A DNA stretch of 62,297 nt, taken from NCBI GenBank assembly GCA_035491975.1, contig DATJJV010000046.1, forward strand, positions 1 through 62,297. Direction: 5' to 3'. This document shows, piece by piece, positions 2,857-48,724 of this stretch (within the stretch, counting starts at the first letter, position 1; every line of letters starts with the position of its first letter). This DNA comes from Candidatus Pristimantibacillus sp. GTDB taxonomy: Bacteria; Patescibacteriota; Saccharimonadia; Saccharimonadales; UBA4665. The notes below the pieces were generated by a model that worked only from the letters and a program-made list of their open reading frames with translations, did not search any database and had not been told where the DNA came from. A program made the translations under genes and the position numbers.

Positions 2857-3028
2857 TGGTACGCGAAGGGATTATTGTTTCACGCCAGCTCGCCTTCAAT
2901 CTCCAGAGAAACTGCTCGTCGGATTCTGCATATATTTGCTGACTGCAGACACCGAATCCGCCGCGGGCGGGTTCGAGTGCTTCGTCACAAACCACGAAAA
3001 TACCCGGCCTTTCGGTCGGGCACTTTCG
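2857..3028 (-). mobile_element. Family-B tRNA-3'-anchored mini-element at tRNA-Arg(CCG)
   Basis: Hairpin, anti-T-arm segment, 95-nt core shared with 48483-48577, and tRNA 3'-end copy at 2857-2873 (2-nt deletion); mobility is inferred. Confidence 0.6.
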
Positions 3029-3105
3029 TGGTACGCGCGAAGGGATTCGAACCCCCGACCTTTGGTACCGGAAACCAACGCTCTATCCAGCTGAGCTACG
3101 CGCGC
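3029..3105 (-). tRNA. tRNA-Arg(CCG)
   Basis: GCGCGCG acceptor, TTGGT-TT-CCG-GT-ACCAA anticodon arm, GGTTCGAATCC T-arm, encoded CCA. Confidence 0.95.
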
Positions 3106-3238
3106 TTAATGAGACAAAACATTACGGTTTTTTCTCATCGGCCAGTCGGGAGAGCCGAGTCGCTGACGCGACCAAGCTGGCCTGCTCTTTTTCCCTACCC
3201 CGGGTTGAAGAACAGGGGTAATTGTACCATAGAATCTA

Positions 3239-3790
3239 CTACTTTGCTTGGTCGTCTTTTTTTTCGGACGAACTGGGGAGCTGGCGCGGCTTGGAAGCTT
3301 CGAGGGTTTGCTGCAGAACGCGCAGCATGGCGTAGGCCTGTTCGCGGCTCATGCCGATTTTGGCGGTGGTCATGGCCTGCGGTGTGCCTATGCCTTGAGA
3401 AAAGCCAAAAATAACACCGTTGGCGTTGGCAGTAACCTGTACGCCGTCGCTATAGATAACCCGCGGATCAACCGCCATGATCATTACCATGGTGCGGTTT
3501 TGGTTGTCGGATTGCGAAGAGCCTCGGTCGTCGTGGTCGTGCGGCTCATCGTAGCCGGCCAACTGCCACAAAATAGCAGCGTCGTCGTCTTGCATACCGA
3601 AGTGGTTGATCAGCAGCAGCAGAATATCTTCACTCGGGCGCTCGCTGCCTTGCTCAATGCGCTGCAGCGACTGCTCGTCGATCTCAACGGCACCGGAAAC
3701 TTCGGCCACACTTTCGTGCAACTTCTGGCGGATAGTCTTTAGCTTCTCGCCTAAATTCTTGAATGGTTGCTCTCGTTGCTCATCACTCAT
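3239..3790 (-). CDS. XRE-family HTH protein with DUF3467-like C-terminal domain
   Basis: [10 protein letters not shown]...[24 protein letters not shown]...FGF...[10 protein letters not shown]-terminus. Confidence 0.75.
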
Positions 3791-3862
3791 ACCGATATAT
3801 TTTATCGCCGATCTCAAGAGGACGCAAGGTCGTACCAGCGTAGCATGCGGTATAATGCGGTC

Positions 3863-4891
3863 ATGGATATAAGGCAGAACGTCTCTTTGCGGGATCATTC
3901 TACAATGCGTCTCGGGGGAGTGGCGGCATACATGGTGGAGGTACGCAGCCGCACCGAGGTGCAGCAGGCCGCGGCTTGGGCCGAAGAGCACAATCTACCC
4001 CTGATCATGATCGGCGGCGGCAGCAACATCATCTGGCGCGACGAGGGGTTCCCTGGCCTGGTGATCGTCAACAAGATTATGGGTTTCGAGGAACAGCAAG
4101 AAGACGACGAAAATTATTTTGTGAACGTCGGGGCCGGTGAAAACTGGGACAGCGTAGTGGCGCGAGTTGCAGCCAAGGGCATGACCGGCATCGAATCGCT
4201 GAGCCTGATTCCAGGCACAGCCGGCGCGACACCGATCCAAAACGTCGGTGCCTACGGCCAGGAGATTGCCCAAACATTGGTGAGCGTCGAAGCCTACGAC
4301 CGCCAGACCAGACAGTTCCTCAACATCCAGAATATGGACTGCGGCTTCGGCTATCGCACCAGCCGCTTCAAGACCACCGACCGCGGCCGTTATTTGATTA
4401 CTGGCATCACCTTGCACTTATTGCACCAGAACCCGCAGCCGCCCTATTACTCCGCCTTGGAAGAATATCTGACCGAGCACAACATTCACGAACACACACC
4501 GCAAAACCTCCGTGACGCGGTGATCGCTATCCGGCAAGCCAAACTGCCCGACCCGGCGGTAGTGGCCAATAACGGCTCATTCTTCGCCAACCCGGTCATC
4601 AGCGAGGGCCAGCTTGCCCAGCTGCACGCCGACTACGGCACAATCCCCAGTTGGCCGGCAGGCGAAGGGAAGGTCAAAATCCCAGCCGCCTGGCTACTGG
4701 AACAAGCCGGTTTTAAAGGCGCCCACGACGAGCAAACCGGCATGGCCACCTGGCCTAACCAACCCCTGGTACTGGTCAACGAACACGCCCAGTCGACCGC
4801 ACAGCTGCTGACCTTCCGTCAGAAAATCCTCGATACCGTACAGCAAAAATTCAACATCACTTTAGAGCAAGAACCCGAGCTGCTGCCGTAG
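3863..4891 (+). CDS. murB: UDP-N-acetylmuramate dehydrogenase
   Basis: [44 protein letters not shown] motifs. Confidence 0.95.
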
Positions 4892-4994
4892 CTTGCGAAT
4901 GTTCCGATACCGGCCGGAAACATGCTTGTATGGCTTGGCATGGTCTGTTATAACGTGGGTATTCCTATCTAACCTCTAGGGGAGACAAACCGCT

Positions 4995-5825
4995 ATGACC
5001 GAACCGAAAAACTTTCCTCCGAGGCAGGCCGACCCGGCCGAGATGAGCGCCCTGATGGGCCAACAATTCTGCGGCGACTACATAAGTCTGTCCCGATTCA
5101 ACATCACCGACGCCGACACGGTCGTTCTCGACGAGGGGCGGCTGGCGGCCCTGGGCGCACAAACCGACGCCACCGCCTTCGACGGCGTTGTTGACCGGCT
5201 GTACGACTTCCTCGACCGCCCAAATCCTGAACCGGAGGTTTTACTGGAGCTGCCCGAAGAAGTCTGGCGCGGCGACCGCTTGCGACCCACCCACCAGAAC
5301 GGTGTACTATTGCAACTACGCAATGCCCTGGGCATCGACCCCCGGCAATTCGTCCGCGACGACACCGTCGGAGAGGGGCCGCACCGCGACAAACGAGGAA
5401 CGGTCATCCGGAAAGTTTCCTTGCGCTCCCAGGCAGACCTTCCCGGGGCCGACCCGCTGCCGCTGCTGCTTATCGAAGAGCACGGCGCAAAAATGATCGA
5501 CGACTTGCTTCTGCCTATCCGGCGGATATCTCTCGCCTTAGGGCTGCCGGAACGCGGCGCAACCGAGGAAGAGCAGATCCGGGTGATGAATCTCGTGAAC
5601 CGGTACAACCACTATGAAGGGCGGCTCGCCATGGACTATATCAGCGGCATGGCACTGTTGGGCGACACCCCTGAGGCCATCATACGAAGCGGCGGCCTCA
5701 ACCGTTGGACGGCACCTACCTACCGCGATATCTGGCTCGCCACACACCTGCACGACCCGGTGCCCAGGCAAACCCGCGAAGACACCGTATACCTGAAGCG
5801 CTTCGGCAGCATCCCCCTGCGATAA
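4995..5825 (+). CDS. Hypothetical protein
   Basis: 276-aa ORF with GGGGAG SD; no family recognised. Confidence 0.65.
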   Translation: MTEPKNFPPRQADPAEMSALMGQQFCGDYISLSRFNITDADTVVLDEGRLAALGAQTDATAFDGVVDRLYDFLDRPNPEPEVLLELPEEVWRGDRLRPTHQNGVLLQLRNALGIDPRQFVRDDTVGEGPHRDKRGTVIRKVSLRSQADLPGADPLPLLLIEEHGAKMIDDLLLPIRRISLALGLPERGATEEEQIRVMNLVNRYNHYEGRLAMDYISGMALLGDTPEAIIRSGGLNRWTAPTYRDIWLATHLHDPVPRQTREDTVYLKRFGSIPLR

Positions 5826-5904
5826 TCCTCTCTGTAAACAATTTGACAGACGCATAAGTCCTTAGTGACGTCTAATAAACGCATGACGTAAGCGGGAGGT
5901 CACT

Positions 5905-47274: not shown

Positions 47275-47685
47275 TTAGTTGTGCAGGCCCGGATCGAAAA
47301 CTCCGAGAAACCTTTCGACGGTCTCGAATAGAGGTTCCTGGCGGGCCTCGTCAACGGTGAAGAAACGCAATTCCTGGCACTCGTCAGAGGGCACGAAATC
47401 CAGATCTTTAAGCTTTACTTCATAGATCACATTGGCCACATACGCCTCTCCGCCTCGTCGCTTAGAGGTAGTGAAATATTTTGGCGACTTTGACACCTCA
47501 GTAATAACTAATCCGGTTTCCTCATGGATTTCGCGCCTCAACCCGTCAATCGGATCTTCACCGTGCTCCAGTCCGCCGCCGGGGAGCTCCCACTGGCCAT
47601 TGTCCTCTTTGGCGAGTAAAAACCGGCCAGTCTCATCGATAACCAGACCCTTGACGCTGACTCGGTAGAAACACGGTGTGTTCAT
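47275..47685 (-). CDS. NUDIX hydrolase
   Basis: WELPGGGLEHGEDPIDGLRREIHEETG. Confidence 0.9.
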   Translation of the reverse strand: MNTPCFYRVSVKGLVIDETGRFLLAKEDNGQWELPGGGLEHGEDPIDGLRREIHEETGLVITEVSKSPKYFTTSKRRGGEAYVANVIYEVKLKDLDFVPSDECQELRFFTVDEARQEPLFETVERFLGVFDPGLHN

Positions 47686-47694
47686 AGCCCTAGT

Positions 47695-48411
47695 CTAACA
47701 CCTTATTGGTCTTGAAGGTCTGGACGTTAGATATTCCGCCTCGGCCAACAGCTCATGAATGTGCTTCTTGTGCCATTTGATAGTTCCGAGATGCCCCGAA
47801 TGAGGTCTGGTAATAATCTTGATTGGGACGCCTGCGCTCCGCCAAGCTTGCAGCGTGGCAAGTGCCTGTTTATATCTGATGAGCCTATCCCGCTTGCCAA
47901 GTACCATTACAAAAGATAGATCTCGTCTTGGAGGGCTATCGGCAGAGATGTCGATCTCCTGCCACAAGCTATTGAGCCGGGCCGCACTAAAGCCTCTTTT
48001 ATTGAACTTTCGGCGCACAAAATAAAAGAGCGGTGATTTAAGAGCGTCTTTTCCCGACATGCCAGCGACTGCGTAAATACCATATTGTATAGCGGGCATG
48101 CGTCTTTGTAAGGCAAAGCACAGGCCGGAGCCAGCACTCGCCCCGATGCAGATTATTTTTTTGTAACCATCTATCCTCGCCGCGAAATCATTACAAATTC
48201 CGTCTACTAGGCTGAGTAGGTCGTGAGGATCGCCGCTCGTCATAACCGACGGGCTGTGTTCGTAGGCAACTACCGCAAAGCCCTGTTCATTGAGCGTTTG
48301 GATAACACCCTGATAGCTCTTGATCTTTCCGCCGTAACCGGCGATGACGCAAGCGACTTTTTCGGATCCCTCGACTGGAAATGACTGCGTGCGGAACAGA
48401 GGGGCATTCAT
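47695..48411 (-). CDS. Alpha/beta-hydrolase fold protein
   Basis: IAGYGG, CIGASAG nucleophile elbow, GKRD, PHSGH; visibly AT-richer. Confidence 0.7.
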   Translation of the reverse strand: MNAPLFRTQSFPVEGSEKVACVIAGYGGKIKSYQGVIQTLNEQGFAVVAYEHSPSVMTSGDPHDLLSLVDGICNDFAARIDGYKKIICIGASAGSGLCFALQRRMPAIQYGIYAVAGMSGKDALKSPLFYFVRRKFNKRGFSAARLNSLWQEIDISADSPPRRDLSFVMVLGKRDRLIRYKQALATLQAWRSAGVPIKIITRPHSGHLGTIKWHKKHIHELLAEAEYLTSRPSRPIRC

Positions 48412-48430
48412 TAGGTAAATTGTATAACAA

Positions 48431-48454
48431 AAGCACCTCTGCCGAGAGGTGCTT
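48431..48454 (-). terminator. Terminator hairpin beyond the tRNA-Lys element
   Basis: AAGCACCTCT...AGAGGTGCTT with a T-tract on the minus strand. Confidence 0.7.
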
Positions 48455-48468
48455 CCTGCTGTTTACGC

Positions 48469-48647
48469 TTGGAGGGCCCAGTGGGATTATAGCTTCTCGC
48501 CGGTTCGTCTTTGATTTTCTAATGAACGACGACTCGGGTTCGGCATATATTTGCTGAACGCAAATATCGAACCTGCCCTTTTGGCAGTCTGTCTCCCCCT
48601 CGAACCTTCCCAAAGAAAGGACCCCGTGTGAAACGGGGTCTTTTCTT
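48469..48647 (-). mobile_element. Family-B tRNA-3'-anchored mini-element at tRNA-Lys(TTT)
   Basis: 18-nt direct repeat TTGGAGGGCCCAGTGGGA (48469-48486 and 48647-48664); core colinear with 2868-2962. Confidence 0.62.
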
Positions 48648-48724
48648 TGGAGGGCCCAGTGGGACTCGAACCCACGACACGAGGCTTAAAAGGCCTCTGC
48701 TCTAACCAACTGAGCTATGGGCCC
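48648..48724 (-). tRNA. tRNA-Lys(TTT)
   Basis: GGGCCCA acceptor, GAGGC-CT-TTT-AA-GCCTC, GGTTCGAGTCC, CCA. Confidence 0.95.

Follow-up and report, generated by a model that had tools for sequence, protein, structure and literature searches.

Hairpin units without protein genes behind tRNA genes of Saccharibacteria: candidate counterparts of the tRNA-linked repeats of Escherichia coli

Among described systems, the tRNA-linked repeats (TLRs) of Escherichia coli stand closest to the element reported here. Their first description dates from 1978 (Egan and Landy 1978 and Rudd 1999, as cited in PMC8144298); the accessible text of PMC8144298 counts 22 of them at ten loci, defines them by an 18–19 nucleotide (nt) copy and gives no known function. 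A second point of reference is the Ssn nucleases, whose authors suggest, in the accessible part of PMC11893778, an origin like that of insertion sequences (IS). The subject of this report is a 62,297 nt stretch of Candidatus Pristimantibacillus sp. (contig DATJJV010000046.1, at its full length called the window), in which seven tRNA genes were called with ARAGORN and six are followed by a hairpin-rich unit that carries no gene. REP/REPIN and MITE-type repeats, which RAYT or IS200/IS605 TnpA mobilize, are small non-autonomous hairpins as well, with nested mosaics and single-strand targeting. In these ultra-small soil bacteria, units of the present kind follow many tRNA genes. We lean towards reading them as Saccharibacterial counterparts of TLRs, i.e. 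protein-less hairpin modules that likely insert as single-stranded DNA at the first unpaired A, possibly following a cut by a GIY-YIG nuclease. New here are a junction rule that centers on this first A, the very probable independent mobility of the cores with filled and empty promoters, a strand-specific bias towards DNA-type loops, and loci that bridge nuclease and core.

Layout, junction and spread of the units

The unit begins with a hairpin (HP1) at the base after CCA, followed by a degenerate antisense copy of tRNA nt ~76–44, a small hairpin, a sense copy of nt ~45–57, the core, a copy of nt 58/59–76, and often a second terminator. Since the sense copy of nt ~45–57 precedes the core and nt 58/59–76 follow it, the core is situated inside a duplicated T-loop, which it interrupts by standing in place of the first A of the loop. 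The insert thus sits in a partial copy and the tRNA gene upstream is complete, which is not the arrangement of a tRNA intron. An earlier note on this DNA had described the 3′ copies as 17–21 nt long; these are present, and the sense copy before the core had been missed. The same note had assumed one shared core. There are two, A and B, which are unrelated in sequence and for which the models R1 and R2, respectively, were used.

A survey of core A gave 120 distinct units at 34 tRNA species, in agreement with the earlier suggestion of a non-autonomous element at many isotypes. The neighbouring tRNA is the best fit for the 3′ copy in 101/120 units, and the copy reaches nt 76 in 64 of the 97 scorable units. 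Where the tRNA has A57, three T-loop bases are kept before C61 (24 of 25 scored); where it has G57, two are kept in 29 units, with 20 more ambiguous, and never three (p = 1e-15 for the clear cases). The left side of the junction shifts accordingly (21/21 vs 42/61).

The antisense run is longer against the neighbouring tRNA than against other tRNAs (10.8 vs 7.7 nt; longer in 105/120) and extends to 23–26 nt in three units. Of the long antisense runs, 33/43 pass the 57/58 junction without interruption by a core, so an intact gene was likely the template of the antisense arm. The arm as a full splint for nt 58–76 was considered and rejected, as its acceptor part is weakly cognate (best in 10–21/108). 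HP1 resembles an ordinary terminator, displays no C-GNA-G triloop in 43 hairpins scored, and pairs with the CCA end (nt 76 paired in 106/108). An inverted-duplication origin of HP1 was also rejected, because the second hairpin, HP2, is a direct copy in all six cases where it resembles HP1. Units lie in the tRNA operon on the strand of the tRNA and may be tandem, e.g. locus L082 holds three in a row.

In a family sample of 121 genomes, core A is found in 46, with up to 30 copies per genome, and core B in 37. A phylum-wide sample, taken to look for core A outside the class, showed it in 2 of 141 genomes, both Saccharimonadales. An exact pattern gave at least 118 matches in GTDB, most labelled Saccharibacteria with a few bins not so labelled, which places the organism in the Saccharibacteria. 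A viral source was set aside, as the one exact core-A pattern tried on viral contigs was not found. The source genome shows 11 core-A sites (nine behind intact tRNAs, one behind a tRNA-Trp truncated at the end of a contig, one away from tRNA) and four core-B sites, with 12 of its 37 called tRNAs carrying a core. Units are present in the single-contig genomes G003 and G216 as well. After de-duplication there were 143 core-A sites: 107 had a tRNA no more than 330 nt away, 6 were at contig ends, and the other 30 lay elsewhere. A position mostly away from tRNAs, which by the earlier note would have spoken for an ordinary repeat, does not apply to core A and applies in part to core B.

In the window the layout that had been proposed for five tRNAs is present at all five and extends, in decayed form, to a sixth, tRNA-Pro(TGG). 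The tRNA positions, the distances of the 3′ copy and the 5-nt remnant at Arg-TCT were all reproduced. The units form more stable folds than shuffles do (RNA z-scores of −3.7 to −5.2 on the tRNA strand), and Rfam at gathering score yielded nothing in the window besides the tRNAs. In the coordinates that follow, the stretch from HP1 to the sense piece was delimited by hand.

Core B is found at tRNA-Arg(CCG) and tRNA-Lys(TTT), both on the minus strand. Behind tRNA-Arg(CCG) (3029–3105), HP1 extends from the first base after CCA (2995–3028), followed by the antisense copy of the tRNA 3′ part, a small hairpin and the sense copy to nt 57 (2953–2994), core B (2874–2952; R2 match 2872–2954) and a 17-nt copy of nt 58–76 with a 2-nt gap (2857–2873), which ends 172 nt from the tRNA. 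This is the only one of the five loci without a second terminator, which had been described as usual. Behind tRNA-Lys(TTT) (48648–48724), HP1 (48613–48647), a weak antisense arm, a loop and the sense T-arm piece together occupy 48568–48647, followed by core B (48489–48567; R2 91 bits). The 19-nt copy of nt 58–76 with one change (48470–48488; distance 178 nt) and the second terminator then extend over 48428–48488.

Core A is found at tRNA-Arg(TCT) and tRNA-His(GTG) on the plus strand and tRNA-Pro(CGG) on the minus strand. The segment 12495–12568 behind tRNA-Arg(TCT) (12418–12494) consists of HP1 (12495–12529), the antisense arm (12530–12557), a loop and the sense T-arm piece (12563–12568). It is followed at 12569–12639 (R1 95 bits) by core A (12569–12634) and a 3′ copy reduced to 5 nt (12635–12639), and by a second terminator hairpin, placed by hand, at 12653–12680. 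At tRNA-His(GTG) (18693–18769), the segment 18770–18879 holds HP1 (18770–18808), the antisense arm (18809–18835), an inner hairpin and the sense copy of nt ~45–57 (18867–18879), followed by core A (18880–18940; R1 73 bits). The exact 19-nt copy of nt 58–76 (18941–18959; distance 190 nt) forms the segment 18941–18996 with the second terminator. At tRNA-Pro(CGG) (23209–23284), HP1 (23174–23208), a weak antisense arm, a C-GAA-G hairpin and the sense T-arm piece occupy 23133–23208. Core A (23068–23132) displays 92.5% identity over 67 nt with the Arg-TCT core, and the exact 19-nt copy of nt 58–76 (23049–23067; distance 160 nt) and second terminator occupy 23010–23067. The decayed Pro-TGG unit (25124–25256, minus strand) retains a hairpin, arm remnants and a diverged core A (R1 match 25124–25198, 15.8 bits, E-value = 0.03). 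The remaining tRNA of the window, tRNA-Gly(TCC) at 11470–11544, is without a unit, and a HisN-like phosphatase gene begins 7 nt downstream of it.

Elsewhere in the source genome, tRNAs on C19, C25, C41, C56 and C65 show HP1 with remnants of the antisense arm, or have cores that resemble neither A nor B (Phe and Gln-CTG on C41). Further core families probably exist beyond A and B. At L183:3488-3527 and L184:7282-7320 a short core A also interrupts an anticodon loop, within a second copy of the 5′ half of tRNA-Met that precedes the intact gene; this arrangement is the mirror image of the T-loop units.

Probable movement of the cores and the folded strand

Core identity was compared over 88 units and is no higher within a genome (0.697) or within a tRNA species (0.687) than in the reference comparison (0.692), with 68 and 116 of 200 shuffles, respectively, as high for genome and tRNA species. 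HP1 and the middle part, in the same 88 units, follow both genome and tRNA (0–2/200 shuffles). Core B is found inside core-A loops at 5 of 12 sites. Of its 30 best matches, 11 are just behind a tRNA, short of the strict tRNA linkage claimed earlier, and about ten split a −10 box between T and A. For eight of ten −10-box cases the source genome has an orthologous promoter, and at least four of these eight, read by eye, show a plain box equally far from the start codon (lepA-, def- and glyS-like genes and window position ~50520). Thus similarity that tracks neither genome nor tRNA, nesting of B in A, and core B in −10 boxes that are empty in the source genome make it very probable that the cores are independently mobile.

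The example in the window is situated at ~50520–50560 (minus strand), where the promoter of the gene 50056–50550 is an empty site and the orthologue L438 has core B in the −10 box. Core A too is found in an apparent −10 box at L100. In the source genome a short core A with no tRNA near (L023, G000:C4:4013-4090) lies in the apparent −10 box of an opposite-strand gene. Promoter melting begins at the −11 A. What all these targets have in common is an A that borders an unpaired stretch.

Both cores covary (0/500 shuffles). The stems contain 85 G·T against 18 A·C pairs, and this excess identifies the tRNA strand as the folded strand. C-GNA-G triloops number 81 on the tRNA strand and 4 on the opposite strand, a rate of 5.0 per kb compared with 0.09 per kb genome-wide (~55-fold); in E. 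coli TLRs the corresponding strand counts are 21 and 1. GNRA and UUCG loops are nearly absent outside HP1. C-GNA-G mini-hairpins are far more stable as DNA than as RNA and are found at single-strand origins and N4 promoters, according to the accessible part of PMC13037366. The DNA-type, strand-biased triloops favour a role at the DNA level, with a role as RNA possible besides, and the cores quite likely act as single-stranded DNA. The available text of an E. coli mobilome preprint shows raised coverage at tyrT-rttR; its authors attribute raised RNA-gene coverage to heteroduplexes.

Candidate movers and the proposed insertion route

Small GIY-YIG nucleases are the candidate movers. Locus L119 has an 88 amino acid GIY-YIG gene inside a core-A unit; the protein is nearest to UPF0213 (PDB 1ZG2, E-value = 4.5e-15) and 33% identical to E. 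coli YhbQ. At L318 and L398 a relative precedes nt 59–76, with the tail or the 3′ half of core A in between. At L400 the nuclease's own hairpin is joined to nt 59, and at L401 a nuclease-linked 16-nt hairpin is nested in core A. Among relatives from metagenomes, 20 of 80 are situated at the 3′ end of a tRNA or tmRNA, and behind several of them a broken copy of the tRNA comes next. The related single-domain GIY-YIG protein SsnA cleaves single-stranded DNA only, at a position a few bases away from its hairpin (accessible text of PMC11893778). A GIY-YIG protein may be the mover of the cores, at slightly less than even odds.

Other GIY-YIG genes were seen in different settings. Most of 29 scored family genes (L288-L317) are flanked by inverted CGTC-type palindromes (Ssn-like), as in the cd10448 clade, with up to seven per genome; the L119-type nuclease falls outside this palindrome-flanked clade in a weak tree, constructed by a quick method with short or stop-containing rows and duplicates left out. 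At L296 and L299 small GIY-YIG genes are within apparent 23S rRNA sequence and are probably introns. At L381, L386, L387 and L395 a GIY-YIG gene with hairpin repeats lies between an smpB-like gene and the tmRNA 5′ end.

In the proposed route, the core would fold as single-stranded DNA and insert where DNA is locally open, at its first unpaired A. A small GIY-YIG nuclease from elsewhere would make a nick beside such hairpins, and the insertion would then be completed by repair or recombination of the host. A core in the T-loop would kill a single-copy tRNA gene, so the surviving form would be an intact gene with an interrupted 3′ half. The antisense arm, which would pair with the sense piece, would likely derive from the intact gene, copied through fold-back at the terminator. 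A wider and rather doubtful proposal is that the units belong to a widespread, undescribed class of protein-less mobile DNA, which would target single-stranded DNA opened by transcription (tRNA loops, −10 boxes and the loops of other such elements) at the first unpaired A and be moved by ~90 amino acid UPF0213/YhbQ-like GIY-YIG nucleases. On this view the TLRs, from E. coli to Patescibacteria, would be the footprints it leaves in rescuing tRNA genes, and YhbQ its domesticated mover in E. coli.

Several observations weigh against this route or parts of it. Core A is linked to a nuclease gene at three loci only, and the half-core match at L398 is weak (nhmmer E-value = 5e-4, covariance model E-value = 0.46). 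No small GIY-YIG gene was found in the source genome, which is 92% complete. None of 29 family GIY-YIG loci adjoins a tRNA 3′ end, and other palindromes flank them; the co-occurrence with core A, which is present in 9/13 family genomes with a small GIY-YIG gene compared with 37/108 others (p = 0.03, kin not being independent), therefore concerns a different nuclease clade. The tRNA-lodged nucleases do not form one clade (15 changes on the weak tree), and the nuclease cassette could itself be an invader of the unit. The accessible text of PMC11893778 describes no strand-joining activity for Ssn. Fold-back as the origin of the antisense arm found no support, HP2 being a direct copy of HP1 in 6/6. 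At the Lys locus, four contig sets yielded neither an empty allele nor a circle or excision joint. The two-base loop of core A is also compatible with an RNA loop of CUUG type, and E. coli TLRs are produced as processed RNAs (accessible text of PMC8144298).

Recombinases and other mobility enzymes were looked for as well. No serine recombinase, HUH/Y1 transposase or reverse transcriptase was found in the source genome, nor a reverse transcriptase beside the cores. The sole tyrosine recombinase of the source genome is a Xer-type gene beside an ndk-like gene. No integrase is near the units, in agreement with the earlier note, and the genome shows no island with an integrase gene and an att-type junction. 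Among 753 open reading frames within 1.5 kb of cores, the large clusters look by eye like housekeeping neighbours, with no recurrent mobile gene; a motif scan of the same set gave serine recombinases, Xer and one GIY-YIG gene.

Islands with a serine recombinase are frequent at these tRNAs (88/121 genomes), and arrays are found in which units alternate with cargo genes. Many core-A sites away from tRNA follow a junction made of the last 6–10 nt of the tRNA and a T-loop-like motif whose start is 30 rather than 25 nt from the end (by hand count, 17 at 30, 3 at 31, 2 shorter). Islands without any core end in the same junction, which thus belongs to the islands, and integron-like cassette arrays were rejected on this basis. 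A serine recombinase was rejected as mover because it is absent from the source genome and under-represented in core-rich genomes: it is lacking in 11/18 genomes with at least six core-A copies vs 22/103 others (p = 0.001, kinship and binning not controlled). For serine integrases a 5-bp shift separates attP from attB (accessible part of PMC3783163). The junction suggests an integrase family for which the universal T-loop serves as the zinc-domain motif, with crossover near nt 71–72. Islands would have pushed older units away from the tRNA, and new units would have formed later beside it (L177, L179, L187). Island junctions were noted at +17677 (L230), +3093 (L232), +9544 (L238) and +5571 (L245) from the tRNA end, and also at L177, L179, L185 and L187, and several such islands have a serine recombinase beside the tRNA. 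At L185:1748-2587 a rolling-circle Rep gene (REP_ORF2-G2P) is adjacent to a serine recombinase; the reading frame of the latter extends across tRNA-Gln on the other strand.

Alternative explanations and relation to known systems

The unit might instead be kept as a structured RNA, with tRNA read-through yielding a CCA-ended tRNA mimic (a processing signal, sponge or decoy) that spreads by gene conversion. This appears unlikely. Every unit is on the tRNA strand, the stems covary with G·T in excess of A·C, HP1 always abuts the CCA and pairs with it, and RrA/B/F of E. coli undergo processing and bind Hfq as well as CsrA in vitro (accessible text of PMC8144298), all of which would suit such an RNA. 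It would not explain the DNA-type triloops together with the near absence of GNRA and UUCG loops outside HP1, the location of core B within −10 boxes and core A, the patchy presence (46/121 genomes) with frequent decay, or a 3′ copy that reaches nt 76 in only 64/97 units. We consider it improbable that the unit is a shrunken integrative element, in which the 18–19-nt repeat would be an att duplication made by a trans-acting tyrosine or serine integrase around a cargo of ~100 nt. The length and place of the repeat are like those of att sites at tRNA 3′ ends, and the serine-recombinase islands share these tRNAs and alternate units with cargo genes. Yet the junction of the islands differs and arises without a core, and islands displace units rather than make them. 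The recombinase is lacking in the source genome and in most core-rich genomes, and integrases leave insertions in −10 boxes, anticodon loops and other cores unexplained.

Somewhat more improbable again is joining at the RNA level, in which cores would be cut or reverse-spliced into the tRNA at the loop A and written back by a reverse transcriptase, with a stop at a modified T-loop A giving the 18-nt copy. The 18–19-nt copy is like a retroviral primer-binding site, and anticodon loops are among the targets (L183, L184); against it, no reverse transcriptase was found in the source genome or beside cores, −10 boxes are not transcribed, and the loops are of DNA type. An assembly artefact at tRNA repeats can practically be dismissed. 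tRNA genes often break assemblies and several units lie at contig ends, but 120 distinct units occur across many assemblies, including the single-contig genomes, the stems covary, and E. coli K-12 shows the same design. In a read check that covered the Lys locus, an independent contig (8 differences) spans 47912–48564 and crosses the junction of the Lys core and 3′ copy.

The reading of the units as TLR counterparts can then be placed beside known systems. No paper was found on the origin or mechanism of the units or on tRNA-lodged GIY-YIG cassettes; subscription papers and supplements may hold one. Ssn nucleases with NTS/SRM hairpins likewise combine ~90 amino acid single-domain GIY-YIG genes with oriented hairpin repeats that act as single-stranded DNA, and the main text of PMC11893778, as far as accessible, does not mention tRNA. 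Unlike Ssn systems, the units of the window carry no gene, and the core-A-linked nuclease found elsewhere is nearest to UPF0213. In contrast to REP/RAYT systems, no Y1 HUH transposase was found in the source genome, and insertion is at an A of a loop or bubble, in tRNA genes as well as promoters, with a rescue duplication. The serine-recombinase islands share the tRNA loci and the mixed arrays and differ in the junction (6–10 nt, motif shifted +5), which is independent of cores. If small GIY-YIG proteins, E. coli YhbQ among them, cut these folded DNAs, the result would be a new and minimal way for DNA to move, rewriting promoters and tRNA 3′ flanks in reduced genomes.

The nearest system remains the TLRs, so that at the level of design the units do resemble a described family, which the earlier note had not recognised. 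E. coli TLRs (tyrT rttR/RtT, RF00391; RrA/B/F) carry an 18–19-nt copy of the 3′ end of the upstream gene, as here (accessible text of PMC8144298). Those at tyrT, lysQ and proK share with the present units an antisense arm, a sense T-arm piece, a core with a mini-hairpin at its end, tandem copies and C-GNA-G loops. The TLR cores are unrelated in sequence to cores A and B, and the cores here, unlike E. coli TLRs, are also seen away from tRNAs. RF00391 gave no match up to E-value = 10 on the Saccharibacterial units (E. coli controls 46–137 bits), and R1 on E. coli TLRs gave E-value = 0.17 at best. As judged by sequence and layout, the units are TLRs by design and not members of the Rfam RtT family. 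The same TLR design with unrelated cores in a distant phylum, together with the junction rule, the filled and empty promoters and the nuclease-bearing loci, makes the origin of TLRs a testable question.

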